From: an uncultured Phaeodactylibacter sp.
GTDB lineage: Bacteria; Bacteroidota; Bacteroidia; Chitinophagales; Saprospiraceae
NCBI GenBank assembly: GCA_964572415.1
Contig: CAZNHN010000002.1
Coordinates: 2,381 to 66,380 of the forward strand
Reading direction: 5' to 3'
DNA: 64,000 nucleotides
Under the pieces are notes generated by a model. It searched no databases and was not told the origin of the DNA. It worked only from the letters and a program-made list of their open reading frames with translations. The position numbers were made by a program, and so were the translations under genes. This document shows, in pieces, positions 1,139-21,229 of this stretch; positions within the stretch are counted from its first letter, which is position 1, and the number at the start of each line of letters is the position of its first letter.

Positions 1139-1918
1139 ATGAGCAAGATAGAGATTCGAACCGTAGAAGTGGTACAGTACCTAAAGCCCCTTAGGGAAGG
1201 TGGCTCTCTGCCAGCCATTGTGGAAGCCGATGACGAGTTTCTGTACGTCCTGAAATTCCGGGGTGCCGGACAGGGCAAAAAAGCCCTGATTGCAGAGCTT
1301 ATCGGAGGGCTGCTGGCTAAGGAGATCGGGCTGAATGTACCGGAGCTGGTCTTCATGAACCTCGACGACTCTTTCAGCAAAACGGAGCCGGACGAAGAGA
1401 TACAGGACTTGCTAAAGTTTAGCGTCGGGCTGAACCTCGGGCTCCACTTCCTTTCCGGGGCCATCACCTACGACCCCCTGGTATCCGAAGCGGATTCTTA
1501 TTCCGCCTCCAAGGTGGTCTTGCTGGACAGCCTGATCAATAATATCGACCGGACCGCAAAAAATACCAACCTGCTCAATTGGAACAGGGAGCTGTGGCTG
1601 ATTGACCACGGTGCCAGCCTATACTTCCACCACAACTGGAAAAACTGGCGTGATTACCTCCTCCGGACTTTCCCCAAAGTGAAAGACCACGTCCTTTTGG
1701 CAAAAGCCAACCACCTTAATGAGGCTTCAGCGGATATCCGGGCAGCCATTGATGAAGCAAAAATCGCCGAAATCATTTCCGTCATCCCCGAAGAATGGCT
1801 GACGGAAGAAGATATGGAGCTCACGCCCGACGAAAAGCGGAACGCCTACCAGGAATTCCTGAACGCGAAGCTGGATAAAATTGATGTATTGGCCAAAGAA
1901 GCTTTAGATGCAAAATAA
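1139..1918 (+). CDS. HipA-like Ser/Thr kinase (HipA_2-type)
   Basis: Gly loop REGGSLP, YVLKF lysine, ALIAE glutamate, catalytic loop LDSLINNIDRTAKNTN, metal-binding LIDHG; 259 aa; overlaps the downstream gene by 11 nt. Confidence 0.85.
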   Translation: MSKIEIRTVEVVQYLKPLREGGSLPAIVEADDEFLYVLKFRGAGQGKKALIAELIGGLLAKEIGLNVPELVFMNLDDSFSKTEPDEEIQDLLKFSVGLNLGLHFLSGAITYDPLVSEADSYSASKVVLLDSLINNIDRTAKNTNLLNWNRELWLIDHGASLYFHHNWKNWRDYLLRTFPKVKDHVLLAKANHLNEASADIRAAIDEAKIAEIISVIPEEWLTEEDMELTPDEKRNAYQEFLNAKLDKIDVLAKEALDAK

Positions 1919-2291
1919 AGTAACCTTCGAATACGCAGTGGTCAGGCTGGTACCCAAAGTAGAGCGGGAGGAGTTCCTGAATATTGGGGTCATTTTGTTT
2001 TCCAAACGAAAGAAGTTCCTCGGTATCAGGTACCAGATCGATGAGGCCAAGGTTACAGCCTTCTCAAAGGAAGTTGACGTAGCTATGATCTATCGCTACC
2101 TGCACGCCTGGGAAGCGGTATGCGCCGGAGGGCGGCAGGGCGGTAAGATTGGCGAACTTGACATGGCCTCCCGTTTCCGGTGGCTGGTAGCCGCCAGAAG
2201 CACTATCATTCAGAGCTCCCCAACCCACCCCGGCTTGTGCAACGACCCCGAAGCCGTGCTCGAAAGACTGTACCAAAGATATGTGCTGTAG
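1908..2291 (+). CDS. DUF3037 domain-containing protein
   Basis: FEYAVVRLVPKVEREEFLNIGVILF and RFRWLVAARSTIIQSSPTHPGLC are typical of DUF3037; translationally coupled to the kinase. Confidence 0.85.
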   Translation: MQNKVTFEYAVVRLVPKVEREEFLNIGVILFSKRKKFLGIRYQIDEAKVTAFSKEVDVAMIYRYLHAWEAVCAGGRQGGKIGELDMASRFRWLVAARSTIIQSSPTHPGLCNDPEAVLERLYQRYVL

Positions 2292-2379
2292 CCCTGCCAG
2301 ATGCTCATTTTTCCATAAACCCGTTCCCGGTACCAACCTACCCCACTCTATTTTGTTAATTTGCCAAAAAATAAGATCA

Positions 2380-2724
2380 ATGAGAAAAGGATTGGTATTT
2401 ATAGCCATTGCAGCGCTAATTTATGCCTGTGGCGGCAGCAGTGCTCCTGCTGAAAGCAACTCCAGCACCGGTGCAAAAGCCGTAGCAGCTGCAGCCAAAC
2501 CAGATGGTGAGAAAATCTACAAGCAATACTGCGTCACCTGCCATGGCCTCTACGGCGATATGGGTGCAAGCGGTGCTTACAACCTGCAGGAATCGGCACT
2601 CACCCTGGAAGAGCGCATCAACGTCATTACCAACGGCCGCAAAGCCATGACCGCCTTCGAAGCACTGCTGGACGAGAAAGAAATCAAGGCAGTCGCCAAA
2701 TACACCATGAAGCTTGGGGAATAG
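2380..2724 (+). CDS. Mono-heme class I cytochrome c lipoprotein
   Basis: Start trimmed to MRKGLVFIAIAALIYAC (lipobox); heme motif CVTCH; distal Met in KAMTAF. Confidence 0.9.
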   Translation: MRKGLVFIAIAALIYACGGSSAPAESNSSTGAKAVAAAAKPDGEKIYKQYCVTCHGLYGDMGASGAYNLQESALTLEERINVITNGRKAMTAFEALLDEKEIKAVAKYTMKLGE

Positions 2725-3832
2725 GCACACCATACTCGGAATAATGTCCGGTAGTTCCCTGGATGGGCTGGATATGGCGCTTTGCACCTTTGAGTTCAAT
2801 GGCCAGGCACTTCAGCATTGGGAAGCCCTTGCATGTGAAGCCCGCCCTTTCCCGGAGAGCTGGGTTCGACGGCTCCGTGCGCTTCCCGCTGGCACTGCCC
2901 GGGAGTTAGCGGTAGCCCACGCCCAATTCGGGCAGTTCCTGGGAGAGCAGGCCAAGGCTTTTCTGGAGGCACAGGCTGTAGACGCTGATGCCATCGCGTC
3001 CCACGGGCACACGATTTTCCACTTCCCTGAATCCGGCGTTTCCACACAAATCGGGGACGGCGCGGCCATCGCGGCAATCACCGGGCGCCCCGCTATCGAC
3101 AACTTCCGCATGCAGGACGTTGCGCTTGGCGGTCAGGGTGCACCCATAGCTCCTGTTGCGGACCAGTACTTGTTTCCAGAGCAGACCTTCATGCTAAACC
3201 TGGGCGGCATAGCCAATATCAGCGCCCGAACGGAGCAAGGTTATGTGGCCTTTGATTGCAGCGGGGCGAATCAGGTGCTCAATGCCCTGGCACAGGAAGC
3301 CGGGCAACCTTACGACAAAGGAGGTTCCATAGCCCGAACAGGGAAACTGCTGCCTGACTTGCTGGACCAAGCGATGGCTTTGCCTTATCATCAGGCTGAC
3401 TTCCCAAAATCGCTGGGCAATGACTGGGTACAGGAACAACTGCTCCCCCTCTACATGGATTACCCGGCTTCTGTGGCAGACCGGCTGCACACCACCTGCT
3501 GGCAAATTGCACAAAGTGTTGACGATAGTATCAGCGCTATAGCGAAAAAAGCCAAACTGCCATCCGAGCCTCACTCCATGCTGCTTACCGGCGGGGGGGC
3601 GTTCAACACGTTTCTGGTGGAGTGCATCCGCGCGAAGTGCGAAAAAACCCGTTCCTTAGCTGTAGAAGTGCCTTCACCCCTAATTATCGAATATAAAGAA
3701 GCCATTTTGATGGCCCTCATGGGTGCCCTGCGCCTGAAAGGGCTGCCCAATACCCTGCCTACAGCTACTGGCAGCACTGCACCAAGCTGCGGTGGCGGGC
3801 TGCATACACCGCCCAAAACGCATAACCGCTAA
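2714..3832 (+). CDS. anmK: Anhydro-N-acetylmuramic acid kinase
   Basis: GIMSGSSLDGLD, ASHGHTIFH, DFR-like NFRMQDVALGGQGAPIAP, LNLGGIAN, LTGGGAFN; TTG start overlapping the cytochrome gene. Confidence 0.93.
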   Translation: MGNRHTILGIMSGSSLDGLDMALCTFEFNGQALQHWEALACEARPFPESWVRRLRALPAGTARELAVAHAQFGQFLGEQAKAFLEAQAVDADAIASHGHTIFHFPESGVSTQIGDGAAIAAITGRPAIDNFRMQDVALGGQGAPIAPVADQYLFPEQTFMLNLGGIANISARTEQGYVAFDCSGANQVLNALAQEAGQPYDKGGSIARTGKLLPDLLDQAMALPYHQADFPKSLGNDWVQEQLLPLYMDYPASVADRLHTTCWQIAQSVDDSISAIAKKAKLPSEPHSMLLTGGGAFNTFLVECIRAKCEKTRSLAVEVPSPLIIEYKEAILMALMGALRLKGLPNTLPTATGSTAPSCGGGLHTPPKTHNR

Positions 3833-4882
3833 ATGGATAAAAACAGCTCCATACTCATCACCGGTGCTACCGGGTTTATCGGTTCTCATCTGCTGCAGCA
3901 GCTCCTGGCGGATGGCTTTGACTGTATCCGGGCCTTCCGCCGGCCGGGCAGCCCGATGGACCTTGTGGCTGACCTGGCTGAGAAAGTAGAATGGGTTGAT
4001 GGCGATATCCTCGATATTTTCGCGCTGGAAGGAGCGATGGAGGGCTGTGACTATATTTTTCATTGTGCGGCCGTCGTCTCTTTTGATCCGGCTGATGCCC
4101 GGTATCTACGTATGGTCAATATCACTGGCACGGCCAATGTGGTGAATACAGCGCTTAAGCTGGGGATAAAGAAATTGCTTTACGTAAGCTCTATCGCGGC
4201 ACTGGGTCGGACCAAGCAGGGCATCACTATATCCGAAACCGCCAAGTGGGAGCGCAGCCCCTTCAACACCCGATACGCGGTCAGCAAATATCAGGGCGAG
4301 ATGGAGGTGTGGCGCGGCTTTGCCGAGGGCCTGGATTTTGCTGTAGTCAATCCTTCCATTGTGCTCGGAAGTGGTTTTTGGGAAAGCGGTCCGGCACATT
4401 TCTTCTCTATGGTCGACGAAGGCTTCCCTTTTTATCCTGTTGGCACGACTGGCCTGGTGGACGTACGCGATGTCGCCTGGTATATGGTCCGGCTGATGGA
4501 AAGCGATATCAAAAACGAGCGCTTCATCCTCAATGCGGAGCACTATCCCTACCGACAACTACTAACGGAGGTAGCGGAAGCATTAGGCGTAAAGCCACCT
4601 AAGTATAAGGTCGGAAAAATCCTGCGCGGTTTATCCTGGCGCCTGGCCTGGCTGCAAGCTAAACTGACCGGCAAGCGCCCGTTTCTTACCCGGGAGACCA
4701 CCCGTAATTCAAGCTGGATTTTCTACTATAACAATCAAAAATCGCTGCAGCACTTCGACTTTGCTTACACCCCCATCGCACAGACCATCCGGGATACGGC
4801 CGAAGCTTACCGGCAGGCAAAAGGCCAGCAAGCGGTGCGCCTTAGCCCCAACCGCCCTTCCATTTCTGAGCAATCCGCCTAG
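3833..4882 (+). CDS. NAD-dependent epimerase/dehydratase (extended SDR)
   Basis: ITGATGFIG Rossmann motif, HCAA, VSSIAA, catalytic YAVSK. Confidence 0.9.
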   Translation: MDKNSSILITGATGFIGSHLLQQLLADGFDCIRAFRRPGSPMDLVADLAEKVEWVDGDILDIFALEGAMEGCDYIFHCAAVVSFDPADARYLRMVNITGTANVVNTALKLGIKKLLYVSSIAALGRTKQGITISETAKWERSPFNTRYAVSKYQGEMEVWRGFAEGLDFAVVNPSIVLGSGFWESGPAHFFSMVDEGFPFYPVGTTGLVDVRDVAWYMVRLMESDIKNERFILNAEHYPYRQLLTEVAEALGVKPPKYKVGKILRGLSWRLAWLQAKLTGKRPFLTRETTRNSSWIFYYNNQKSLQHFDFAYTPIAQTIRDTAEAYRQAKGQQAVRLSPNRPSISEQSA

Positions 4883-5993
4883 CGGTTTCCAGCATATCGT
4901 CTTCCCAATGTTCGACGTTCCAGGCAGTCTCTGCCAGAGGCGAAGCGGACAATTGCGTGCGGGCCTCCCTCAGGCTTACTGCTTTTTCCAATATTCCTGA
5001 CAAGGCCTGCTGCTGTTGGTGCAGGGCTTCATCAGACCGGGGCGTAGCCGACAGGGTGAAAGCTGGTGGTTGGAAATCGTTGAGCGAGGTTGGCTTTCCT
5101 GCTAAATGATTAGGGTGTTGCAGTATGCGGTACATGGTGCGAAAGTCAGCTTGGAAAGCCCGCTGCTGTTCCGGGGTTTCCAGTGCCCCTCCTAGTTGTT
5201 CCAGAACGACATACTTCAAATTCGGGCACTTCGGCAGGGCTTTTTCTAACAAGTCAAATACGGCCTGAGGCACCGTTCCATCGTGGGTATCCCGCCGGAT
5301 TTGGCGATTGCGCTGCCCTGCTGCCGGTTCCCAACTGCCACCGGAAATGTGTATTTCACGCACCCGGTGCAGGGGCATCAGCCGGAGCAGTTCCTCCGCC
5401 GATTGACGGAAGTTGTGGAGCTGGCAGTACAAATTATGGAGATCTAAAATGATAAACCCATTAATTGGTTCCAGCAATTGCTCCAGGAAGTCGCCATGGT
5501 GCTTCACTTCATCGAGTGTATAGGCGAAAGCCAGGTTTTCCAACCCCACCGGACAGCCAGCTGCTGCACTGATGCGTTTGAGACGGTCCCGGCCAAGTTG
5601 CAGGGTTTGGGGTGTGAAAGGTATACCCAGGGGTGCCCCCTTGTGAAAATCAGCACCAGTCATGAAGCCAAAATGCTCCGTCACATGATCAAAACGATAC
5701 ACTTCAGAAAGCGCTTTCAGCCGGTCGAGCCATTGCTGCTGCTCCGCATTCCAACGACCGGAAAAGAGCGAGAAAAAGACCCCGTGGCCTACGAGCCGCC
5801 CCTCCCCACTGTAGGCCTGGATGAGGGCGGAAAACCAGTCCGGTATTTCCGGAAACGAAAAAAGGGCATCGAAGGACCACTCCAATGCCTCCACCTGCCC
5901 TGCTGCGAGCAAAGGGTGAGCGGCCCGCAGCAGGTTGGTGTCTAAATTACAAGCGAGGGTAGCGCGTGGGCGCTGTAAACCGGAATGCTCCAT
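4842..5993 (-). CDS. DUF692 multinuclear non-heme iron oxidative enzyme (MNIO; ChrH/MbnB/TglH family)
   Basis: Iron-ligand motifs TEHFGF, GLENL, LDLHNLY, EIHISGG, DTHD, VLE. Start placed at ATG 5993, 2 nt after the precursor stop (the ORF track starts at 6020, inside the precursor). Confidence 0.92.
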   Translation of the reverse strand: MEHSGLQRPRATLACNLDTNLLRAAHPLLAAGQVEALEWSFDALFSFPEIPDWFSALIQAYSGEGRLVGHGVFFSLFSGRWNAEQQQWLDRLKALSEVYRFDHVTEHFGFMTGADFHKGAPLGIPFTPQTLQLGRDRLKRISAAAGCPVGLENLAFAYTLDEVKHHGDFLEQLLEPINGFIILDLHNLYCQLHNFRQSAEELLRLMPLHRVREIHISGGSWEPAAGQRNRQIRRDTHDGTVPQAVFDLLEKALPKCPNLKYVVLEQLGGALETPEQQRAFQADFRTMYRILQHPNHLAGKPTSLNDFQPPAFTLSATPRSDEALHQQQQALSGILEKAVSLREARTQLSASPLAETAWNVEHWEDDMLETARRIAQKWKGGWG

Positions 5994-5995
5994 GC

Positions 5996-6190
5996 TTAGC
6001 CCATTCCGCAAGCCGGGCAATTGTACCAGGGCTTGTCGCCATCATCTGTTGGGCAGCGGTCATCTTCGGCTGCCTTTTCGGTGTCGGGCTTGACCTCATC
6101 GGAGTTGTCAAGTAGAGTGCAGGATGTGGCGCTGCCGCCCAGGGCAACCCCCAGCGCGATGGCTTGAAGCAGTGATTTGGATACTTTCAT
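5996..6190 (-). CDS. Chryseobasin (ChrA)-like RiPP precursor with lipoprotein-type signal and C-terminal CPACGMG
   Basis: MKVSKSLLQAIALGVALGGSATSC...PWYNCPACGMG; 64 aa; immediately upstream of the DUF692 gene on the same strand. Confidence 0.9.
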   Translation of the reverse strand: MKVSKSLLQAIALGVALGGSATSCTLLDNSDEVKPDTEKAAEDDRCPTDDGDKPWYNCPACGMG

Positions 6191-6336
6191 GGTCAGAAGG
6201 TTTTAAAAATTAAGTCAGGTGATTTCAGGGGAACGACCTGCTGTGGCAGGCTTCCGGGGTTAGAGATGTAGGAGAAGGGCAAAAGGGTTGGGTAAGAAAC
6301 CGGATTTTTTCAATTCATTCAAATTGTGCTTGATGG

Positions 6337-6921
6337 TCAGTATCCCACCTCACGGTACTCCGCCACTAACCGAAAGCCTGTCCAGGCATTAGGCTCATCA
6401 GCCCGGAACGAAACATACTGAGCAACATCAGCGGGCCTATGAAACCAACTTCCTCCCAGGGTGATACCCGGGGCAGCTGACCATTCTGCAACATTGCCGC
6501 TTAGGTGCCGGATATACTTGAGGCTATCCGGCAGAATCCCCGAGCCGGCGCTCGCCACAGGAAGCCTTATGACTCTCTCCTGTGTACAGGGATTTTGCCC
6601 GGCATTAACGGGCTCTTCACAATCCAGCTGGCATTCTTTCTGATAACGCCTCAGGACTTCTTCGTTGTAAGCTTTGGCTTTTTTCCGGTCTTCTTCGGAA
6701 GGGAGCCGGTAGTGAATGTAGCGGGCGAGCGTGGGGTGGGGCGCACACCAACGGTATTTTCCGGATAAATAGCGCTCTATCGTAAAATGATTGCGAGGCC
6801 CCGGATCCGGATGAAAAGGAATGACCTCAAAGTGGCGTAAAACCAGTTCCAGGATTCGGTCCGCCCGCCATTTTGCGTAAGCTATAGCCTGGGTACGGCT
6901 CACCCCAACTGTAAAAAACAT
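6337..6921 (-). CDS. FGE-sulfatase (SUMF1/GldJ-K-like) domain protein, apparently N-terminally truncated
   Basis: VGVSRTQAIAYAKWR, HLSGNVAEWS, LGGSW and TGFRLV are FGE-fold signatures. The ORF begins abruptly at the first of these motifs, with an in-frame TAA just upstream. Confidence 0.65.
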   Translation of the reverse strand: MFFTVGVSRTQAIAYAKWRADRILELVLRHFEVIPFHPDPGPRNHFTIERYLSGKYRWCAPHPTLARYIHYRLPSEEDRKKAKAYNEEVLRRYQKECQLDCEEPVNAGQNPCTQERVIRLPVASAGSGILPDSLKYIRHLSGNVAEWSAAPGITLGGSWFHRPADVAQYVSFRADEPNAWTGFRLVAEYREVGY

Positions 6922-7180
6922 CTGTTAATGTAGCTGTATCCATCTATCCGTTTTAACGGAATTTCCTCCTATAGAATATAATGGGCGGCAGCAACTGAAT
7001 TTCCGCAAATCGGTTGCTCCGTATTCCCCTCATCCCTGGGTGATCATGGAATAAGGGCAAGAACCATAAAAACTAATAGTATGAATCCCCCCTTATATCG
7101 CCCAAAGCCCCTCATTCTTCGAGTTTCCACATCCAAAGCCCCCTGTGACATGTTCACTAAAAGAATAAGCATTGCATACT

Positions 7181-9574
7181 ATGGAAGAAATCGACTTACC
7201 GGTAGAACCCCCAAAGACTCAACCACACGCCCGGCAGGCCGTTGTGGATGAAGAGTGGAACGTATTGAAGGAACTTGACATCGAAGAGATGCCTTTCCGG
7301 TTCAAGCTCAGCCTGGCCCCTTTGCTGGAGATGATCAAAGAAAAGGCAGAAAGCGACAACCCGGTGGAATCGGGTGTGGGGCAGTTCGTCATGGATCGGC
7401 TGAAGGATGCGCCGGAGTTATGGCAGCCCATTCGAGACCGCAGGCAACTGGAACAACATAAAGACATTATCGACCTGCTCATGCTGATGGTCATCCCTCC
7501 TGCCCTGCGCCGAAATCAGCTGATCAAGGTGTCAGCGCCGTTCGAAATGGCACCTATCTATATGACGCCTGCCCTGGAGGACCACATCCGGGCTAAAAAT
7601 TTCAAGTACGTCATCAACCACAAGCCAGGCTTCACCTTTTGCTCTATGGTGATCAGCGCCTGCAGTTTCATCCTGAATACCCACTACGGTACCGATCTTA
7701 AAATCGGATCGCCCCTGTCGATTTCTATTTCCAACCCGGAAACGGGCATGGAGCGGCATTACAAAACCCGCCTCGACACAGACTACATGAGGATAAAAAA
7801 GCTAAAGCCGCTGAAACCCCTCAACCAGGAACAAATCAATGAGCTGCTAAGCAATGTGTACGATGTAGACCTCTGGATGAAATATCTGCCCCCGGAGAAC
7901 TTCGAGTTCCAGGGCTTTACCATCGGTACGCTGATCGATATCACGGAGGAAGAGGCCTTGTCCAGGCTTAAGTTTTCCCTGCTGGAACGCAATGCTGTAG
8001 TACAGGAAGAGAAGGTTAGCCGACTGGAAGGCCTTGTTCGAACCTTCTTTGACATCCCTGGCTTGCAGATGGGCGTTACGGCCATTGACTATCCTAAAGA
8101 GTATCAAGTCGCCCATCAGTATAAAATCCGCTATGATTTCCTCGCCGAGGAGCAGGGAGACTTGCTGGCGGAGGACAACGCAGGCTCCATTTATGAGAAA
8201 GCCTGTAAATACCGGGAAATCGTGCTGGTAGAGGACCTGGAAAGGATAAAGCAAAAGACCCCGATCGAAGAGGGTCTGCTCAAAAAGGGGATCCGCAGTA
8301 TCATCGTTGCGCCTTTGCTGAATAAAAAAGAGCGCATTATTGGCCTGCTCGAAATCGGCTCGCCCAAGCCTTACGAACTACACAGCTTTGTAGAGCTTAA
8401 ATTCCGGGAACTAGTCAGTTTATTTAGTATGGCGGTGGAACGCAGCCGGGATGAGATCGATAATCAGATTGAGGCCATCATCCGGGAGCAATACACGGCC
8501 ATTCACCCGAGTGTGGAGTGGAAATTTATTGAAACCTCCTACAACCTGCTGGAAAAGCGGGAGGCAGAGGGTAAGAATGCCACCGCACCACCCATTGCCT
8601 TCCGGGATGTGCACCCGCTCTATGCACAGGCGGATATTGTAAGCTCCTCTGACCGGCGGAACCATGCCATACAGGCCGACCTTTCGGAAAACCTGCACCT
8701 GCTGCTGGACCTCCTTGATGTAGCAATTGGCATGGGCCGTTACCCTTTGCTCAACCAATACCGGGCGGCTGCAGAACGCAACCTCAGAGGCGTACTGGAG
8801 GACTTCAACTCTAACGACGAGTCCAGGATCGTTTCCTGGCTAAAGGACGAAATCCACCCGGTGCTTGAGGACATCAGAAGCCGGTACCCTGCTCTGCAAG
8901 CCAAGGTCCGGCACTATTTCAACTACATTGATGCAGACCTGGGCATTGTGTACCAGGAACGCAGAAAGTACGAGGACAGCGTATCCATGATCAACTCCAC
9001 TATAGCCCGCTACCTGGAGGATCAACAGGAAGCAGCCCAAAAAATTGTCCCCCACTACTTTGAGCGCTATAAGACAGATGGGGTGGAGTACGATATCTAC
9101 GCCGGGCAGTCCCTGCTCAAGTCCGGCACCTTCAAGCCTATGCACCTGCGTAATCTCCGGCTTTGGCAGTTTATTGACATGTGCGAAGTCACTCGTTTGG
9201 TAGAGGATCTGCAAACCGACTTGCCCGTACCCCTCTCCACCGCGCAGCTGATTTTCACCTACTCCAATCCCCTGTCGATCCGCTTCCGGATGGACGAAAA
9301 GCAGTTTGATGTGGATGGGGCCTACAATGTCCGCTACGAGATACTGAAGAAGCGCATTGACAAAGCGCTGATCGAAGGCACAGATGAGCGGCTTACTCAG
9401 GCTGGCAAAGTGGCGATTGTCTACCTTCAGGAAAAAGATAAGCAGGAGTACCTTGATTATGCGGACTACCTCATTTCCGAAGGGTATATTACCGAAGATA
9501 TTGAGGACCTTAAAATCGGCAAACTACAGGGTGTACAGGGGCTTCGGGCTCTCCGCTTTACAGTAAAGCACTAA
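7181..9574 (+). CDS. GAF domain-containing protein (~797 aa) with putative divergent class III nucleotide cyclase C-terminal region
   Basis: GAF: IVLVEDL...GIRSIIVAPLLNKKERIIGLLEIGS. C-terminal motifs LYAQADIVSS, ERYKTDGVEY, QFDVDGAYNVR. Start at ATG 7181 (ORF track uses TTG 7172). Confidence 0.8.
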   Translation: MEEIDLPVEPPKTQPHARQAVVDEEWNVLKELDIEEMPFRFKLSLAPLLEMIKEKAESDNPVESGVGQFVMDRLKDAPELWQPIRDRRQLEQHKDIIDLLMLMVIPPALRRNQLIKVSAPFEMAPIYMTPALEDHIRAKNFKYVINHKPGFTFCSMVISACSFILNTHYGTDLKIGSPLSISISNPETGMERHYKTRLDTDYMRIKKLKPLKPLNQEQINELLSNVYDVDLWMKYLPPENFEFQGFTIGTLIDITEEEALSRLKFSLLERNAVVQEEKVSRLEGLVRTFFDIPGLQMGVTAIDYPKEYQVAHQYKIRYDFLAEEQGDLLAEDNAGSIYEKACKYREIVLVEDLERIKQKTPIEEGLLKKGIRSIIVAPLLNKKERIIGLLEIGSPKPYELHSFVELKFRELVSLFSMAVERSRDEIDNQIEAIIREQYTAIHPSVEWKFIETSYNLLEKREAEGKNATAPPIAFRDVHPLYAQADIVSSSDRRNHAIQADLSENLHLLLDLLDVAIGMGRYPLLNQYRAAAERNLRGVLEDFNSNDESRIVSWLKDEIHPVLEDIRSRYPALQAKVRHYFNYIDADLGIVYQERRKYEDSVSMINSTIARYLEDQQEAAQKIVPHYFERYKTDGVEYDIYAGQSLLKSGTFKPMHLRNLRLWQFIDMCEVTRLVEDLQTDLPVPLSTAQLIFTYSNPLSIRFRMDEKQFDVDGAYNVRYEILKKRIDKALIEGTDERLTQAGKVAIVYLQEKDKQEYLDYADYLISEGYITEDIEDLKIGKLQGVQGLRALRFTVKH

Positions 9575-14691: not shown

Positions 14692-17600
14692 CTAACGGCT
14701 ACTCAGTAAATAAGGGTAGTCGTTATTCGTAATCAACAATAACTTCCCCTCGCCTAATGGCAAAAGCGCCCGCGCCTGAACCCCGGTCGGCAGATTAAGT
14801 GATTGGACTGCTTTAAAGGAGGAGTCTGTAGTATCGTAGCCTACAAGTACGCCGCCCCGTGCGGATTGGCTGTTGCCATGTACGGCCATCAGCTCAGCAT
14901 TACTGCTGATGTAGTATAACTGCCGGGGCTCTTCTTCCCACCACATATCCTGTATTGTGCCCCACTGCGCCTGTGCAGGTAAAGGCTGCGCTTCATAGCC
15001 CCCATCAGCTGTGGATAGGAATAGCATAGACTGCAGGGTTTCCGCCTGCTTTTCTTCTACCAGGAATTCCTGTCCTTCCGGCAAAAGGGCTTCAAAGCTG
15101 GCTACCTCAGCATATTTCGAATAGGATATGAAATCCTTCTTCAGCCCGGGCAGTTGCGACAATAATTTATCTTTTGAGCCCAGCGGGACGTAACGGTCGT
15201 AGTACTGGAAAAAGATAAGAGGGTCTACAAAGCCATTCTCATCAAAATCGCCAAGATAGAGTTTGACAGGCGCCTCCGGACTCGCTTGCATCAGGCTGTT
15301 AGTGCCCAGGTTGCCTGCAAAAATATCAAGTTGCCCATCCTGATTAACATCTGCCACGGCAAGCTTCGTCCAGAATCCGGTCAGCGCAGGGCCGTTGGCT
15401 TCTTCCGGCAGGTACTCCAGCGCACCTTCACCATCGTTCTCCAGTATCGTCACTGGCATCCAGTCGCCACAGATGATGAGGTCCAGGTCATCATCCTGGT
15501 CAAAGTCAGCCCATTTCGCATCAGTGACCATACCGAAGCGGTGCTGATAGGCAATGTCCACGCCTCTGCCCTGCAAGTTAGTCAGGATGAAGCTGTAGGG
15601 AGAAAGCCCGTAAGACCCCGGAATTGAGCGGGCACCAACGAAAAGGTCTTCGTACCCATCCTTATTGAAGTCCGCAACTGCCACTACGCTACCGTTGGTG
15701 TGGGGCAGAGAAAGCTGCACGCGGCGGAAATCCATGTTGCCGTTGTTCAGGTACAGCCGGTCTTCCAGTGCCTTCTCCAGCTCTTTGGCAGCTCCTCCCC
15801 CGCTCACGGCATACAGGTCCAGGTCACCGTCTGCATCGAAATCAATAACCGCAAAATCAGCATCTTCGTAACCGGCATCTCGGGTAAAAGCCTCCACCTC
15901 CAGGTTCCGGAACGTCCCGTCTGCCTGCCCCTGCAGCAAGCGCATCGGATAGCCATGTGCCCCACCGATTATCAGGTCTTTGACACCATCTGCATTCAGG
16001 TCTTCGTACAAAACAGCCGGCCCTTCCTGCGAAAGCCGCTCGGGCATGAGTTTTTCTTTTTCATAGTCCTCATAGGGGTTCTCCTCGTGTTGCAGTGGAA
16101 ACACTTCAAAGGCCTGAGCTTCGACCGGATTGCCCGCTGTGGCTATTAGCACGTCAGGCGCCGGCCTTTCCACTTCCAAATGCTGATTGACGGACAGGCC
16201 GGAAAGAACCTGTATACCCTGCCCCGGCCAGATAATCCGAACAGAGTCGACCTGACTGGCATCGCCCAGCCCAAAGTGCAAACGGTGAGAAACCGAGGAC
16301 TGATAGCCTTTGACCACTTGCAGTTCCTGATAAAGGGTGCGCCCGCCGGCGTAGACATAGGCTTTGGTACCCAGCGTAGTTTTTCCGGTTTTGTTTTTTA
16401 AGTGCAGACTGAGGTAATTGCCGCCCACTGCACGGTCTTTCCAGGTCAGTATTTGAGCAGGCTCGTTGATGTTGTTCACGATGGCCTCCAGATAACCATC
16501 TTTGTCCAAATCGGCATAAGCTACCCCATTAGAGAAGGTCGGAGTCCCCACTTTAGAGCTTTCCAGATCGGTAAATTCCAGTTCGGACTGCTGCAAAAAG
16601 AGAATATTGTGCAACTTTTCGGAGGGCAGCTTCTCAATCAGCTTACGGGTGCGCTCCGGGTCATCTTCATCAAGCTTTGCTATAGATTCACTGTTGAGGT
16701 AGTTGATATAATCCAGGTCGTTGGGCCGCTTCACGATACCATTGGTAATGAAAATATCCTTCCAGCCGTTGTTGTCGAAGTCCTGCAGCAGCACGCCCCA
16801 GCTCCAGTCGGTGGCGAAGGTGCGGGTCTGTAGGGCCAGATCGGTGAAGTAAGCTTTACCAGAATTGAGCTGCAGGTGGTTGCGGGCATACTGCTCCTCG
16901 TACCCCAAATCTTCCTTTATCCGTTTGAGCTGATCGGTATCCTCGCCTCCGGATTTAAGGTAGATCTCCTCGTCGAAGGGAAGCATATCCGTGCTGAAAA
17001 TATCCGGCAACTGATCGTTGTTGAGGTCAGCGATATCAACGCCCATGCTGAACTGTGTGGTGTGATCAGTCCAGTCTTTGATCGCCTCCCGGAAGGTTTT
17101 ATCGCCGTTATTGAGATAAATGTAGTCGTTCTCGTGAAAGTCGTTGCCTATGTAGATATCGGTATATCCATCACCGTTGAGATCAGTGGCAGCAACAGCC
17201 AGTCCGTAGCCCAGAGGGCTGTTGTAAATGCCTGTAGCCTCTGTTACATCCACGAATTGCCCTTCTGCTTCGTTGAGGCGGTTTTCCAGGAATCGGTCGC
17301 CCGCCCAGGGGTCGGTTTCCTTGCGCTTCTTGATCGTGCCATAACTTCGAACCGAGTGGACATTATGATTGAGCAGGTACATATCGAGATCGTAGTCCAG
17401 GAAGCAAGCCTGTGTGGAGAAGGCTTGAATATTCAACCCCAGGTCTTTGGAGCTTTCCTTAAAGGTGCCGTCCTGCTGATTCAGGTACAAAAGATTGTGC
17501 GCAGCCGGCATAATGCCCACACCCACTTTACAAACGTGGATATCCACGTAGCCATCGTTGTTGATGTCCACCATCGACACCCCGGTCGACCAGGCATCGT

Positions 17601-17949
17601 CGGCCAAAATGCCCGCCTGCGCTGTGATGTCTTCAAACTGAAGGTTGCCCTTGTTCAGGTAGAGCTTGTCGGGTTGCTCGTTGGCGGTGAAGAAGAGGTC
17701 TTCCAGTCCATCGTTATTGATGTCACCCACCGCAACGCCGCCGCCGTTGTAGTAATACAGGTACTCAATGATGTTGCGGTCCAGGTCATCAGACAACTGA
17801 TTGACAAAGCTAATGCCTGTTTCCTCAGGCCCGAGCGTACGCATAGTACCGGGGGCCACCTCACCTGCAGACGAGGGGTCTCCCCCGCAGGCACTTAATG
17901 ACCATAACAGCAATACAGCAAACCCCTGAAAAACCCCAACTTTATTCAT
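14692..17949 (-). CDS. FG-GAP/VCBS repeat + ASPIC/UnbV domain lipoprotein (CRTAC1-like), copy 3
   Basis: YYNGGGVAVGDINNDG, repeated DxNxDG motifs, GYQSSVSHRLHFGLG (ASPIC). Start at ATG 17949 (MNKVG...SAC lipobox), overlapping the upstream stop in ATGAATAA. Confidence 0.9.
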   Translation of the reverse strand: MNKVGVFQGFAVLLLWSLSACGGDPSSAGEVAPGTMRTLGPEETGISFVNQLSDDLDRNIIEYLYYYNGGGVAVGDINNDGLEDLFFTANEQPDKLYLNKGNLQFEDITAQAGILADDAWSTGVSMVDINNDGYVDIHVCKVGVGIMPAAHNLLYLNQQDGTFKESSKDLGLNIQAFSTQACFLDYDLDMYLLNHNVHSVRSYGTIKKRKETDPWAGDRFLENRLNEAEGQFVDVTEATGIYNSPLGYGLAVAATDLNGDGYTDIYIGNDFHENDYIYLNNGDKTFREAIKDWTDHTTQFSMGVDIADLNNDQLPDIFSTDMLPFDEEIYLKSGGEDTDQLKRIKEDLGYEEQYARNHLQLNSGKAYFTDLALQTRTFATDWSWGVLLQDFDNNGWKDIFITNGIVKRPNDLDYINYLNSESIAKLDEDDPERTRKLIEKLPSEKLHNILFLQQSELEFTDLESSKVGTPTFSNGVAYADLDKDGYLEAIVNNINEPAQILTWKDRAVGGNYLSLHLKNKTGKTTLGTKAYVYAGGRTLYQELQVVKGYQSSVSHRLHFGLGDASQVDSVRIIWPGQGIQVLSGLSVNQHLEVERPAPDVLIATAGNPVEAQAFEVFPLQHEENPYEDYEKEKLMPERLSQEGPAVLYEDLNADGVKDLIIGGAHGYPMRLLQGQADGTFRNLEVEAFTRDAGYEDADFAVIDFDADGDLDLYAVSGGGAAKELEKALEDRLYLNNGNMDFRRVQLSLPHTNGSVVAVADFNKDGYEDLFVGARSIPGSYGLSPYSFILTNLQGRGVDIAYQHRFGMVTDAKWADFDQDDDLDLIICGDWMPVTILENDGEGALEYLPEEANGPALTGFWTKLAVADVNQDGQLDIFAGNLGTNSLMQASPEAPVKLYLGDFDENGFVDPLIFFQYYDRYVPLGSKDKLLSQLPGLKKDFISYSKYAEVASFEALLPEGQEFLVEEKQAETLQSMLFLSTADGGYEAQPLPAQAQWGTIQDMWWEEEPRQLYYISSNAELMAVHGNSQSARGGVLVGYDTTDSSFKAVQSLNLPTGVQARALLPLGEGKLLLITNNDYPYLLSSR

Positions 17950-20900
17950 AGTTAATCTGATATGTCTTGATCTCATCATCATTCCGAAAAATATAAACCA
18001 ACTCGTTGATGAGCTGAATGTCACGAATTTCGCCTTTAACGCCAAATCCAAGTTCGACAGCGCGGTCGGTAAATTGCCCTTTTCCATCGTTGATCAGGCA
18101 ATTCCCGTAGGAGGCGTCATAAATACCTATTTCAGGCTGTACTTTATACAGGTTGCCGCCGAGCAGTAAATCCGGCTTGCCATCTTTATTTACATCTGCC
18201 GCTTCAATGGCGTAGACCGGGCTGAACTGCACCGTTACCGGAAGGACCTGCTTTTCGAATTGCCCCCCGCCGAGGTTGCGCAGCACTACAGACCGCAGTT
18301 CATTGGCTTCCAGCACCGCTGTATTTTCCAGTTGTTGCTCACTAAAAATCTGGGTGATATCCGCCTCCTTGAAAGACTGGAAATCCGGGTATTGCTTTTT
18401 GAGGTACGGCATCTGCTTGGTAAGGTTGTGCCGCAGGGCGTAGGGATAGTCTTTCCCGTTGTCTGCGTTGAATGTCAGAATGCTTTCCGGGAAGTTATTG
18501 TTGTCAAAATCGTTGTAGTACAGGCGCAGCGGGTGTTCGGCAGTGCCGCGGATACGGCTGTTGGTGCCCAGGTTGCCGAGTACCAGGTCTTCATTGCCAT
18601 CGCCATCCAAATCGGCCACCTCCAGTGCTGTCCAAAGCCCGGCATTGGGAAACGACAGCGGCTGCCTGCGCAGGCTTGAGCCTTCGTTTATCAAAATGTG
18701 TACTTCCATAAATTCTCCGGCCACCACCAGATCGGGGCGTTCATCCTTATTCAGATCGCACCACCGGGCGCTTGTGATCATACCTATATTGGACAGTTCG
18801 GGATAATATTGTTCGGTCACATCACGGAAGTTGCCTGTTCCATCGTTTTCCAGGATGAAGCCTGAGCATTTGGCACCATACTTCCCGACTTTGATCCGCT
18901 CTCCGACAAAGAGGTCCAGGTCACCATCGCCGTCGATGTCCCGGGAGTCTACTGCGAGGGTGCTCATTTTTTGATCGTTGGGGAAGACCTGCCGGTGCTC
19001 CGTAAACTGCCCGGTGCCGTCATTGAACCAAATCTCATCGTGCAACAGGTTGGAGTATTCCGTGATCTCTACACCTCCGCTTACAAGGTAGAGGTCGAGA
19101 TCGCCGTCGCCATCTGCATCAAAAAGGTGAGCCGTGAGGTGTTCTGCCCCGGCGTCGATCTGCTCCAGCACGGTTTTGGAAAAGCGCCCATCTGCCTGCC
19201 CGAAATAAGCCACACAGGGGGCACCTTTGGGCCCAGGTATTACGATATCGGTATAGCCATCGCCGTTCAGGTCACCCTGCCCTGCCCGGGGGCCTTCGGT
19301 GCTATGCCCGTGGTAGAGCAGGCGCTCCCGGTTGAAGTCCACATAATTGTTCTCTTCGTGCGTGTAGTCAATGGGAGAGACTACAGGCTCGAACACCTTG
19401 CCAGAGGCGGTATTTTCGGAAGCCATAGAAGCAGTAGCCTGCCCGCTGGAAGAAGCCACCGTCAAAGTCTGATTCGCCTCGACTGTACCAAGTTGCGTCA
19501 CTTTTCCGTCCGGCCAGGTGATGGTCACCTCAGCCTGCGCCGCCTTGCCGATACCGACCACTACCGCCGGGTCTACGCTCGACTGAAAGCCCCGTGTGGG
19601 CTGATTTTCCACCCGCCAGGTCTGATCACCTGCCCGAATTTCCACTTTGCTGCCAATGGCGAAGGTGTTCTGCCCTTCGCCCCGCAGGTGAAACTTCAGG
19701 TAGTTGCCGCCCGCGCCCTGGTTTTCGTAGACAAAACAGGGCATGCTCACATTATTGACCACAAGGTCGAGATCGCCATCGTTGTCCAGGTCGCCGTAGG
19801 CAGAGCCATTGGAAAAGCTGGGCGTTTGCAGCCCGCTTGCTTCGTATGCCTCGAAGGAAAGCCCGCCCAGGTTTTTAAAGGCGTGGTTAGGCACCTTGTT
19901 GGAGGGGATGATGTCGATCAGCTCCTTGTAGTTGACTCCTTTGTCAGAAATGATGGACTGTATGACCGATTCATTGGCGATGTACTGCAGGTAGTCCTGA
20001 TCAGTGAGGTCTTTGTAAATGCCGTTGGCGATGAAAAGGTCTTCGTACCCATCGTTGTCCATATCGAAGAACAGAGCGCCCCAGCTCCAGTCGGAAGCTT
20101 CCACGCCTGCCAGCCGGGAGATTTCGCTGAAGGTGTTGTTGCCCCGGTTGAGGTGCAGCACGTTGCGGGTGAACTGATGATGATAGCCGTTGGTGACGTT
20201 GTACTGGTACTTATCCCAACCCTCAAAGGTGGTAACCGATTTGAGGCGGCTGTAGTCAGAAGGCAACATTTCCGTCACGAAAATATCCTGATAGCCATCG
20301 TTATCAATATCGGCCATATCGGCTCCCATAGAAGCTCCACTAATAGAATTAATCTGATTGACCAGATCCTCTTTGAACGTGCCGTCCTGCTGATTGATAT
20401 AAAGATAATCGCGCTCGAAGAAGTCATTGGAGATGAAGAGGTCTTCCCAGTTGTCGTTATTGACATCGCCCACGGTTACGCCCAGCCCAAAGCCAATCAC
20501 ACTGCCGTAAATGCCGGCCTCTTCGCTCACATCTACGAACCGGCCTCCTTCGTTGCGCATCAACTTATCCCCTCCGAGTTCATCGCGTTTCGGGCGTTCG
20601 TTTTTGCGCAGGTTGAAGCTGCCAATGGCCTGGAAGGAATTATTGAGAATGTACACATCGAGGTCACCGTCCTTATCGTAATCGAAGAAACTCGCATGGG
20701 TGGAATACCCTTTGTCATTCAGGTTGTAGGCCTCCGCCTGTTCCTCAAAACGCAGATCGCCCTGATTGATGAACAGCTCGTTTTCTTTGTTGTCTCCTTC
20801 CACATCGCCGGAATTGCAAACATAAATATCGAGCAGGCCATCGCCATTAACGTCTACCATAGTGACACCGGTGGACCAGGCACGCTGCCCGCCTACGCCC

Positions 20901-21229
20901 GCCTGTTCCGAGATGTCTTCAAACTGCCAGTTGCCTTTGTTCAGGAACAGTTTATTGCTGGTTTGATTGGCGGTCAGGTAGATATCAACCAGCCCGTCGT
21001 TGTTGATATCCCCGATCGCCACACCACCGCCGTTGTAGAAGTTGCGGTATTTATAGACGTTGAAGTCTTTGGTGTAAGTGAGGTCATTGCTAAAGTTGAT
21101 CCCCACCTCAGCATTATCCCTCAGCGTAAATAGCGGAGCGGAAGAGGACTGAGGGCCGGAACCTTCCGGCTCACAGCTCAGGAGGAACAAAAGGGGAACG
21201 ATCCAAAATGCAGTAGGTGCTTTCATCAT
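17942..21229 (-). CDS. FG-GAP/VCBS repeat + ASPIC/UnbV domain lipoprotein, copy 2
   Basis: Lipobox LLSC; FYNGGGVAIGDINNDG; SDWSWG; RGFQSSVDPAVVVGIG. Confidence 0.92.
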   Translation of the reverse strand: MMKAPTAFWIVPLLFLLSCEPEGSGPQSSSAPLFTLRDNAEVGINFSNDLTYTKDFNVYKYRNFYNGGGVAIGDINNDGLVDIYLTANQTSNKLFLNKGNWQFEDISEQAGVGGQRAWSTGVTMVDVNGDGLLDIYVCNSGDVEGDNKENELFINQGDLRFEEQAEAYNLNDKGYSTHASFFDYDKDGDLDVYILNNSFQAIGSFNLRKNERPKRDELGGDKLMRNEGGRFVDVSEEAGIYGSVIGFGLGVTVGDVNNDNWEDLFISNDFFERDYLYINQQDGTFKEDLVNQINSISGASMGADMADIDNDGYQDIFVTEMLPSDYSRLKSVTTFEGWDKYQYNVTNGYHHQFTRNVLHLNRGNNTFSEISRLAGVEASDWSWGALFFDMDNDGYEDLFIANGIYKDLTDQDYLQYIANESVIQSIISDKGVNYKELIDIIPSNKVPNHAFKNLGGLSFEAYEASGLQTPSFSNGSAYGDLDNDGDLDLVVNNVSMPCFVYENQGAGGNYLKFHLRGEGQNTFAIGSKVEIRAGDQTWRVENQPTRGFQSSVDPAVVVGIGKAAQAEVTITWPDGKVTQLGTVEANQTLTVASSSGQATASMASENTASGKVFEPVVSPIDYTHEENNYVDFNRERLLYHGHSTEGPRAGQGDLNGDGYTDIVIPGPKGAPCVAYFGQADGRFSKTVLEQIDAGAEHLTAHLFDADGDGDLDLYLVSGGVEITEYSNLLHDEIWFNDGTGQFTEHRQVFPNDQKMSTLAVDSRDIDGDGDLDLFVGERIKVGKYGAKCSGFILENDGTGNFRDVTEQYYPELSNIGMITSARWCDLNKDERPDLVVAGEFMEVHILINEGSSLRRQPLSFPNAGLWTALEVADLDGDGNEDLVLGNLGTNSRIRGTAEHPLRLYYNDFDNNNFPESILTFNADNGKDYPYALRHNLTKQMPYLKKQYPDFQSFKEADITQIFSEQQLENTAVLEANELRSVVLRNLGGGQFEKQVLPVTVQFSPVYAIEAADVNKDGKPDLLLGGNLYKVQPEIGIYDASYGNCLINDGKGQFTDRAVELGFGVKGEIRDIQLINELVYIFRNDDEIKTYQINYE

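Follow-up and report, generated by a model that had tools for sequence, protein, structure and literature searches.

The precursor and its modifying enzyme

The window analysed here is a 64,000-nucleotide stretch of DNA (contig CAZNHN010000002.1) from an uncultured Phaeodactylibacter species (Saprospiraceae, Bacteroidota). Its reverse strand carries two adjacent genes (Table 1), one for a 64-aa precursor of a peptide that is made on the ribosome and modified after translation (RiPP) and the other for an oxidative enzyme that depends on multinuclear non-heme iron (MNIO), and the pair very probably constitutes a two-gene DAG-RiPP (RiPP-lipoprotein) cassette of the DybA/DybH type. A previous examination of the letters, here called the sequence-only reading, had described a precursor with a hydrophobic N-terminus, an ATSC box with Cys24, an acidic linker, an additional Cys46 and a C-terminal WYNCPACGMG; all of these elements lie where it had placed them. 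Its proposal of an MNIO RiPP pair acting on a CPACGMG precursor is likewise supported, by the NCBIfam model NF050125, by the Pfam family PF05114 and by the invariance of the core.

The translation of 5996..6190 (-) is MKVSKSLLQAIALGVALGGSATSCTLLDNSDEVKPDTEKAAEDDRCPTDDGDKPWYNCPACGMG (64 aa). Its start is unambiguous, because an in-frame stop lies just four codons before the ATG. The WYNCPACGMG terminus runs directly into the stop (TAA, 5996-5998), and after a gap of 2 nt the MNIO gene begins with the ATG at 5993, which confirms the spacing to the DUF692 gene that had been noted. NF050125 covers the precursor at full length with 64.6 bits against a cut-off of 40 (E=1e-17). A set of 5.8 billion proteins held 8 homologues of the precursor, and its profile matched 348 representative clusters at E<=0.001 in a library of 1.84 billion proteins; the 150 best representatives of this exhaustive search serve below as the representative sample. 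In the alignment of the close homologues C58, P59, A60, C61, G62 and G64 are invariant, and at the N-terminus M1, K2, S4, K5, S6, L7, L8, Q9, A10, I11 and A12 are unchanged. The complete CPACGMG core is found in 95 of the 150 representatives. In four of the five Phaeodactylibacter loci more codon changes are synonymous than non-synonymous (6:2, 5:1, 13:4 and 13:6), and in the fifth and most distant, L005, the two kinds are equal in number (23:23). The small open reading frame (ORF) is a genuine gene and not a chance one, on the evidence of the model match, the conservation and the RNA-seq contigs over the copy of a relative. Of the 41 residues of the mature peptide (C24-G64), 11 are acidic and 4 basic; the lipobox Cys and the CPACGMG core bear no charge, the net charge is -7 and the isoelectric point (pI) is 4.05.

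The window has a single precursor gene. In many relatives two or three tandem precursors stand before one MNIO gene (loci L006, L007, L012, L013, L021, L024, L044, L048, L052, L055 and L063), and in the Fluviicola loci a Cys-containing precursor accompanies a basic one that is free of Cys. Relatives also show core variants in which the Pro is replaced or moved (CGPCGMG, CAACGMG, CLACGLG and CMACGMG).

Table 1 Features of the precursor-MNIO locus, in coordinates of the window
Feature	Position	Strand	Basis
Precursor gene (64 aa + stop), DybA-like 'chryseobasin-related' MNIO RiPP peptide	5996..6190	-	NCBIfam NF050125
Predicted signal peptide, residues 1-23 (MKVSKSLLQAIALGVALGGSATS); n-region with K2/K5, then uncharged h-region	6122..6190	-	PROSITE PS00013-type rule
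Cys24 of the lipobox (A-T-S-C); predicted diacylglyceryl and N-acyl site; mature residue 1	6119..6121	-	Invariant; role inferred from DybA
Acidic linker, residues 25-57, with Cys46	6020..6118	-	Composition
Cys46 codon	6053-6055	-	Kept in five Phaeodactylibacter loci
Core CPACGMG, residues 58-64; predicted MNIO substrate (macrocycle, hydantoin, free thiol)	5999..6019	-	Conservation; DybA/DybH, ChsAH and HymAH chemistry
Upstream intergenic region; apparent transcript 5' end at 6247-6251	6191..6336	-	RNA-seq contigs
MNIO (DUF692) enzyme, 383 aa, DybH orthologue	4842..5993	-	PF05114; 58% identity to DybH
TIM-barrel catalytic domain, about residues 10-292	5118..5966	-	AlphaFold2 model; iron-ligand alignment
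C-terminal three-helix bundle, about residues 322-379	4857..5030	-	AlphaFold2 model; aligns with DybH

Probable assignment to the DAG-RiPP family

The architecture of the locus is the one described by Chen, Zhu, Zhang, Berthold and van der Donk (PNAS 2026, PMC13056109; preprint of November 2025, PMC12636315). In that work the relatives of ChrH form two clusters, one of Chryseobacterium and one of other Bacteroidota. Precursors of the second cluster are shorter and have an additional fully conserved Cys, which is the lipobox Cys, and the gene clusters usually consist of just a precursor and an MNIO. A fused C-terminal helical bundle of ~7.8 kDa is the hallmark of the ChrH/DybH subfamily and occurs in all members; where the bundle is a separate protein, as in MelHc, it is needed for activity. 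DybH, ChsH and HymH convert CPxCGxG, with no partner protein, into an unmethylated macrocycle and a hydantoin with one free thiol (-4 Da). The same authors give the function of the DAG-RiPP products as unknown, and the main text of the paper makes no mention of Saprospiraceae, of a fourth cysteine or of disulfides (PMC13056109).

Comparison with the curated NCBIfam models places the window pair beside DybA/DybH, whose locus in Dyadobacter crusticola was recovered as L056. DybA scores 61.1 bits on NF050125 and so passes the same model as the window precursor. Comparison with ChrA and ChrH was made through NF050124 and NF050165, respectively. On the ChrA model the precursor reaches 10.5 bits (cut-off 50), and this over its last 10 residues only; on the ChrH model (MNIO_ChrH) the window enzyme scores 360.8 and DybH 384.9, both below the cut-off of 600. 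The enzyme also falls short of the BufB model (85.3 bits vs 310) and of the HvfB model (74.1 vs 360), and the EGKCG motif is absent from the window precursor, with no partner gene at the locus. These scores argue that the pair is very likely of the DybA/DybH type, hence 'chryseobasin-related', rather than chryseobasin proper. The label 'chryseobasin-type' given by the sequence-only reading does not hold against these models, and 'SAM-dependent' (S-adenosylmethionine) should not be carried over either, because all characterised enzymes of the DybH clade give an unmethylated -4 Da product.

The closest characterised system is DybA/DybH of D. crusticola DSM 16708, the founding DAG-RiPP. Both loci are two-gene cassettes with the precursor directly upstream of the MNIO; both precursors present an SPII-type (signal peptidase II) signal with the invariant lipobox Cys, a short linker and a C-terminal CPACGMG; and both enzymes, at 58% identity, have the fused C-terminal bundle, with no partner protein. 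The precursors are 33% identical overall, with low identity outside the signal and the core. The window mature peptide is longer (41 residues vs 28) and strongly acidic (pI 4.05 vs a slightly basic 7.9), and it has the extra Cys46 and an aromatic W-Y-N before the core. The residues after the lipobox Cys are T-L-L-D-N in the window and A-D-M-D-I in DybA, and the hosts differ (Saprospiraceae vs Dyadobacter).

Other members stand at graded distances. HymA/HymH (Hymenobacter gelipurpurascens) and ChsA/ChsH (Chitinophaga sancti) belong to the same Bacteroidota clade as the window pair, and their products are unmethylated at -4 Da (PMC13056109). The window enzyme is ~60% identical to enzymes from Hymenobacter and Chitinophaga species other than those of HymH and ChsH; the linkers of HymA and ChsA are basic or neutral and free of cysteine, whereas that of the window is acidic with Cys46. 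Chryseobasin ChrA/ChrH (Chryseobacterium; Ayikpoe et al., ACS Cent Sci 2023, PMC10214503) agrees with the window pair in its core (CPACGMG), in the MNIO subfamily, whose enzymes bear the C-terminal bundle, and, by prediction, in a chemistry that yields a macrocycle and an imidazolidinedione. ChrA, however, is longer, carries a signal peptidase I (SPI) signal and is devoid of the lipobox Cys (PMC13056109); SAM supplies an S-methyl group to its product (+10 Da), and the chr operon also holds ChrI (a DUF1772 membrane protein), ChrE and ChrP (an M42 peptidase) (PMC10214503). The lipidated bufferins and oxazolins (for example NedA/NedBC of Neisseria dentiae) are likewise MNIO-modified, with an SPII signal and triacylation, the latter seen for NedA in E. 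coli (PMC13056109). They differ from the window pair in belonging to another MNIO clade, in needing a DUF2063-type partner, in having Cys residues that turn into thiooxazole or oxazolone-thioamide copper ligands, and in their core motifs (EGKCG), which the window precursor lacks. Copper-binding MNIO RiPPs of these kinds combine a BufB- or HvfB-type enzyme with DUF2282, 6-Cys or EGKCG precursors and a partner protein.

The MNIO enzyme

Pfam PF05114 (MbnB_TglH_ChrH, formerly DUF692) matches residues 62-265 of the enzyme with E=1.9e-29, and the ~110 C-terminal residues belong to no Pfam family. A mechanical list of ORFs places the start at an upstream TTG (6020); we take the ATG at 5993 as the start, because the alignments with the homologues and with DybH set in at about residue 10. 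Identity to D. crusticola DybH is 58% over residues 11-382, the C-terminal bundle included, and identity to the counterpart in Phaeodactylibacter xiamenensis KD52 is 93%. DNA of the window from 1139 to 6910 is 92.4% identical to the KD52 genome, and the window genome is close to P. xiamenensis but probably not of the same species.

An AlphaFold2 model built on an alignment of 18 sequences (predicted local distance difference test score, pLDDT, 86.3; predicted template modelling score, pTM, 0.88) presents a TIM barrel, a lower-confidence linker at 293-321 and three helices (322-337, 341-349 and 365-379). The best matches in the Protein Data Bank by Foldseek are TglH (8hci, 8hi7) and MbnB (7fc0, 7tcr, 7dz9), followed by xylose-isomerase-like barrels. 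The iron ligands of TglH are H71, H107, E151, D184, N187, H216, D229, H231 and E258 (PMC10880893). A phmmer alignment, which begins at residue 124, pairs the last seven with E152, D184, N187, H215, D235, H237 and E265 of the window enzyme, and H70 and H107 were matched to TglH H71 and H107 by motif and spacing only. All nine putative ligands (H70, H107, E152, D184, N187, H215, D235, H237 and E265) are invariant in 18 homologues. On this comparison the enzyme appears to have everything an active tri-iron MNIO needs.

A 155-aa antisense ORF lies within the MNIO gene (5478-5945, +) and has counterparts in 17 related loci. It recurs because the MNIO sequence is conserved, and it is most likely not a gene.

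The lipobox and the location of the product

The lipobox was judged by a pattern rule of the PROSITE PS00013 type together with conservation. The strict rule calls for an early K/R, six uncharged positions before the box, [LIVMFWSTAG]2-[LIVMFYSTAGCQ]-[AGS]-C, and a Cys at positions 15 to 35; a looser rule calls for K/R, an uncharged stretch and the Cys. The window precursor satisfies the strict rule, with K2/K5, 10 uncharged positions before the box, A-T-S-C and the Cys at 24. The lipobox Cys is kept in 9/9 close homologues. Among 90 precursors found beside 80 related MNIO genes in GTDB genomes (the genome sample), 74 satisfy the strict rule, and most of the others have a near-lipobox such as T-S-P-A-C or Q-T-T-G-C. 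In the representative sample 145 of the 150 satisfy the looser rule and 131 the strict one. In the close alignment the residues downstream of Cys24 vary while Cys24 itself is invariant. A Cys at the end of the h-region that is invariant in hundreds of diverse homologues, with the later residues free to change, is the signature of a lipobox and not of an SPI site. The conservation of Cys24 on which the sequence-only reading had staked its lipoprotein signal is thus found in the homologues.

The signal peptide of the window precursor aligns with that of DybA, for which cleavage and lipidation take place in E. coli; in this host DybA whose N-terminus was left free becomes triacylated (C16:1, C16:0, C16:0), and lipo-DybAH was isolated from E. 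coli membranes and outer-membrane vesicles (PMC13056109). The best reading is that the window product, too, would be lipid-anchored rather than freely diffusible. This agrees with what had been suggested from the sequence, and the idea of a lipid-anchored RiPP is already demonstrated and published for the orthologous DybA/DybH (PMC13056109).

Where the lipopeptide would finally reside is addressed by the residues that follow the Cys. The +2 residue is Thr, so the precursor is without the Asp at +2 that marks inner-membrane retention in E. coli (PMC13056109). The surface-export signal of C. canimorsus is C-X-K-(D/E)2-X with strict positional dependence, and the export consensus of B. fragilis and F. 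johnsoniae is SDDDD or SDDFE (PMC5080379). In the window precursor the Cys opens the stretch C-T-L-L-D-N-S-D-E, in which +5, +8 and +9 are acidic, +3 is not Lys and neither +3 nor +4 is acidic. A pattern C-[STGN]-L-[LFV]-[DE]-[DN] is common to many Saprospiraceae-type relatives. The sole SusD-family lipoprotein of the window (SusD/RagB; 25338-26936, -) begins with C-T-D-L-E-E-E-L from its lipobox Cys; the Phaeodactylibacter lineage may therefore use a surface-export signal variant of its own. Display of the product at the surface or on vesicles is plausible, with no support from a canonical export signal. The window also encodes two tandem lipoproteins of ~1095 aa with FG-GAP repeats and an ASPIC/UnbV domain (14692-17982 and 17942-21229, -).

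Cys46 and the acidic linker

The position of Cys46 is kept in all five Phaeodactylibacter precursors, including that of L005, in which almost all of the neighbouring residues have changed. The extra Cys highlighted by the sequence-only reading is therefore real and conserved in the genus, yet it is a common trait of a large subfamily and not peculiar to the window locus. In the genome sample, a linker Cys is absent from the precursors found in named genomes of Dyadobacter, Chitinophaga, Hymenobacter, Fibrella, Taibaiella, Rhabdobacter, Larkinella and Pontibacter, and 36 precursors, mostly of Saprospiraceae and Fluviicola, carry one to three. Of the 145 scorable representatives nearest to the window precursor 113 have 1-5 linker cysteines, a few of these counts being inflated where the core is without Pro. 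Across the same 145 the median net charge of the linker is -6 to -7 with a linker Cys and -3 without. The motifs CxxxC[DE]xDH and CxxxCxxxC recur in Saprospiraceae-type precursors (for example L008, L035, L062, L066, L067, L075, L037 and L041). The spacing from linker Cys to core ranges from 3 to about 21 residues, and the number of Cys shows no even or odd preference. Such irregularity in number and spacing argues against a single fixed structure. Cys46-Pro47 was also considered as a second 'CP' site for the MNIO and rejected; Pro47 is Thr or Gly in close relatives.

Transcription and the upstream region

RNA evidence comes from assembled contigs of four RNA-seq runs of a relative with a 95-99% identical copy of the locus, and carries no strand information. 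One contig covers 4412-6251 and with it both genes. The contigs of all four runs end at 6247-6251, 57-61 nt before the precursor ATG, and depth is zero from 6257 to 7300. These data point to co-transcription of the precursor and the MNIO from a 5' end located ~57-61 nt upstream of the precursor ATG.

A promoter scan found no sigma-70-type promoter on the coding strand upstream of the precursor, as expected for Bacteroidota. By eye, no clear Bacteroidota -7 box (TAnnTTTG) was seen near the apparent transcript start, and an Rfam scan found no RNA family in the whole window. A hairpin, CCTGC-CACA-GCAGG (6237-6250, -), sits exactly at the apparent 5' end; it could be a stabilising 5' stem or the terminator of the upstream ORF. 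In three of the four runs the contigs break at 5481-5495, and depth is about five-fold lower in the distal MNIO gene (7-12) than near the precursor (48-73). The drop could reflect 5'-biased stability of the transcript or an artefact of assembly or strain. A terminator-like hairpin with a T-run (5889-5865) was weighed as a possible attenuator. It falls within the MNIO ORF, beneath the invariant EWSFD motif, and such a role is not supported, because the break in RNA depth is elsewhere (5481-5495).

Genomic context

The context was compared across 80 related loci, which include Saprospiraceae, Dyadobacter, Chitinophaga, Hymenobacter, Fibrella and Fluviicola. With tblastn of the window neighbours against these loci, the precursor and the MNIO alone recur. 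When 936 flanking ORFs (at least 120 aa long) from 81 loci were clustered all against all, no other gene family turned up in more than 7 of the 81; the second-largest cluster was the spurious antisense ORF inside the MNIO gene. No partner, whether DUF2063-type or other, and no protease, transporter, regulator, Dsb or metal gene is conserved across the 81 loci, and neither the window neighbours nor the related loci link ChrI, ChrE or ChrP to the pair. A role in sensing metal or oxidative stress, which the sequence-only reading had entertained, finds no backing here, in that the pair has no regulator, transporter or metal gene conserved alongside it.

The neighbours in the window are an NAD-epimerase, AnmK, an FGE-like fragment, a GAF-like 800-aa protein and a DUF6268 protein. 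Within Phaeodactylibacter alone, synteny takes in the convergent NAD-epimerase, AnmK and a cytochrome c gene. At its 3' end the MNIO gene shares 41 nt (4842-4882) with the 3' end of the convergent NAD-dependent epimerase gene (3833-4882, +), an arrangement that is kept in the five Phaeodactylibacter loci. Between the precursor and the divergent 800-aa gene sits an ORF of 194 aa (6337-6921, -) whose FGE-sulfatase domain is weak and incomplete (26 bits, positions 94-224 of the 255 in the profile), alongside faint matches of the GldJ/GldK type. It was considered as a member of the cluster and rejected, with partial coverage of the Pfam profile; it lies beside the precursor in two of the five Phaeodactylibacter loci (92.7% and 73% identity) and at no other locus, and so is placed outside the system. 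It is possibly a truncated or decaying gene. The 800-aa protein (7172-9574, +) has a sub-threshold GAF match and no NCBIfam family, and is conserved at 83-95% in two Phaeodactylibacter loci.

Discussion

In the pathway that we propose for the cassette, the 64-aa precursor and the MNIO would be co-transcribed, as the transcription seen in a close relative suggests. In the cytoplasm the tri-iron MNIO would use O2 for a four-electron oxidation of the C-terminal CPACGMG. The sulfur of Cys58 would be cross-linked into a small macrocycle, the backbone would become a hydantoin (imidazolidinedione) and the former Cys61 sulfur would be left as a free thiohemiaminal thiol, for a net change of -4 Da with no methylation; the fused C-terminal bundle of the MNIO would replace a separate partner protein. 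This chemistry is modelled on the 58%-identical DybH and on ChsH and HymH. The N-terminal signal would then route the modified peptide via Sec to Lgt, LspA and Lnt, which would place a diacylglycerol on Cys24, remove residues 1-23 and N-acylate Cys24; here the model draws on the lipobox and on the experiments with DybA in E. coli. The predicted end product is a strongly acidic triacylated lipopeptide of 41 residues, with the modified ring at its free C-terminus, which would remain bound to a membrane, probably the outer one or vesicles formed from it. Cys46 would give it a second thiol, which the characterised members lack.

Several points weigh against this proposal. Every one of its chemical steps is transferred by homology. 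The linker is strongly unlike that of DybA (net charge -7 vs +1, 13 more residues and an extra Cys). Cys46 might also change the result, for instance by forming a disulfide with the newly made thiol or, ahead of modification, with one of the substrate Cys. The RNA evidence consists of strandless assembled contigs from a related strain. As for the final location, the canonical surface-export signals (C-X-K-(D/E)2, SDDDD/SDDFE) are absent after Cys24.

Two alternatives would change the product itself. The pair might follow the true chryseobasin pathway, with a ChrH-type SAM-dependent enzyme, an S-methylated macrocycle of +10 Da and a secreted peptide. The CPACGMG core and the enzyme subfamily with its C-terminal bundle are the same, and the myxobacterial ArlAH made a mixture of methylated and unmethylated products, so methylation is not strictly a matter of one clade (PMC13056109). 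We nevertheless regard this pathway as very improbable for the window, where the precursor fails the ChrA model and the enzyme the ChrH equivalog, where the precursor has a lipobox in place of the SPI signal of ChrA, and where no ChrI (DUF1772), ribulose-phosphate epimerase or M42 peptidase lies nearby; in addition, the three of three non-Chryseobacterium Bacteroidota enzymes tested gave the -4 Da product only (PMC13056109). The other alternative takes the hydrophobic N-terminus as an ordinary Sec/SPI signal or a membrane anchor, with release of an unlipidated peptide to periplasm or medium. SPI signals do occur in ChrA and MelA1, whose enzymes belong to this subfamily (PMC13056109), and the lipobox call on the window precursor comes from a pattern rule and conservation. 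Set against this are the Cys that closes the h-region, which stays unchanged in hundreds of diverse homologues while the residues behind it vary, the agreement of A-T-S-C with the PROSITE rule and the triacylation in E. coli of DybA, whose signal is homologous (PMC13056109); we give the Sec/SPI alternative hardly any credence.

A further possibility keeps the DAG-RiPP assignment and adds to it. The products of DybH-type enzymes keep one free thiol (PMC13056109), and therefore a linker thiol could form with it a disulfide or a two-thiolate metal site. The acidic, Cys-bearing linker would then be a second functional site, in which Cys46 and the free thiohemiaminal thiol form a pair, be it an intramolecular disulfide capping the reactive thiol or two thiolates that bind a soft metal, and the mature product would be chemically and functionally unlike lipo-DybAH. 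Such a site would fit with the fixation of Cys46 in the five Phaeodactylibacter precursors despite their diverged neighbouring residues, with the linker cysteines and more acidic linkers of most of the nearest representatives (113/145), and with the lack of linker Cys in the characterised clades. The proposal is purely inferential, however, and meets a Cys number (0-5) and spacing that vary so widely, with no parity rule, that the family cannot be fitted to one pairing scheme; His is absent from the window peptide, whose linker holds a single Cys, and no redox or metal gene is linked to the cassette. We consider this second site doubtful. With the same reserve the acidic, Cys-bearing linker may be taken to mark a distinct DAG-RiPP subfamily, centred on Saprospiraceae and their relatives, in which the linker thiols (Cys46 in the window, CxxxC[DE]xDH or CxxxCxxxC in relatives) and the thiohemiaminal thiol made by the MNIO would jointly provide a disulfide cap or else a soft-metal or redox site tethered to the membrane.

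The window locus, read as a DybA/DybH-type cassette, is an ordinary member of a published family (described in 2025-26) that already has an NCBIfam model, and its less charted point is the linker with Cys46. It extends the RiPP-lipoprotein strategy to marine, alga-associated Saprospiraceae, in which the cassette is transcribed. The characterised DybA, ChsA and HymA represent just the Cys-free, basic-linker half of the family. The large acidic subfamily, with its 1-5 linker cysteines, has an obvious extra chemical handle and is a reasonable place to seek a function; if true, the reading of the linker thiol as a second site would be the first functional clue for the family.

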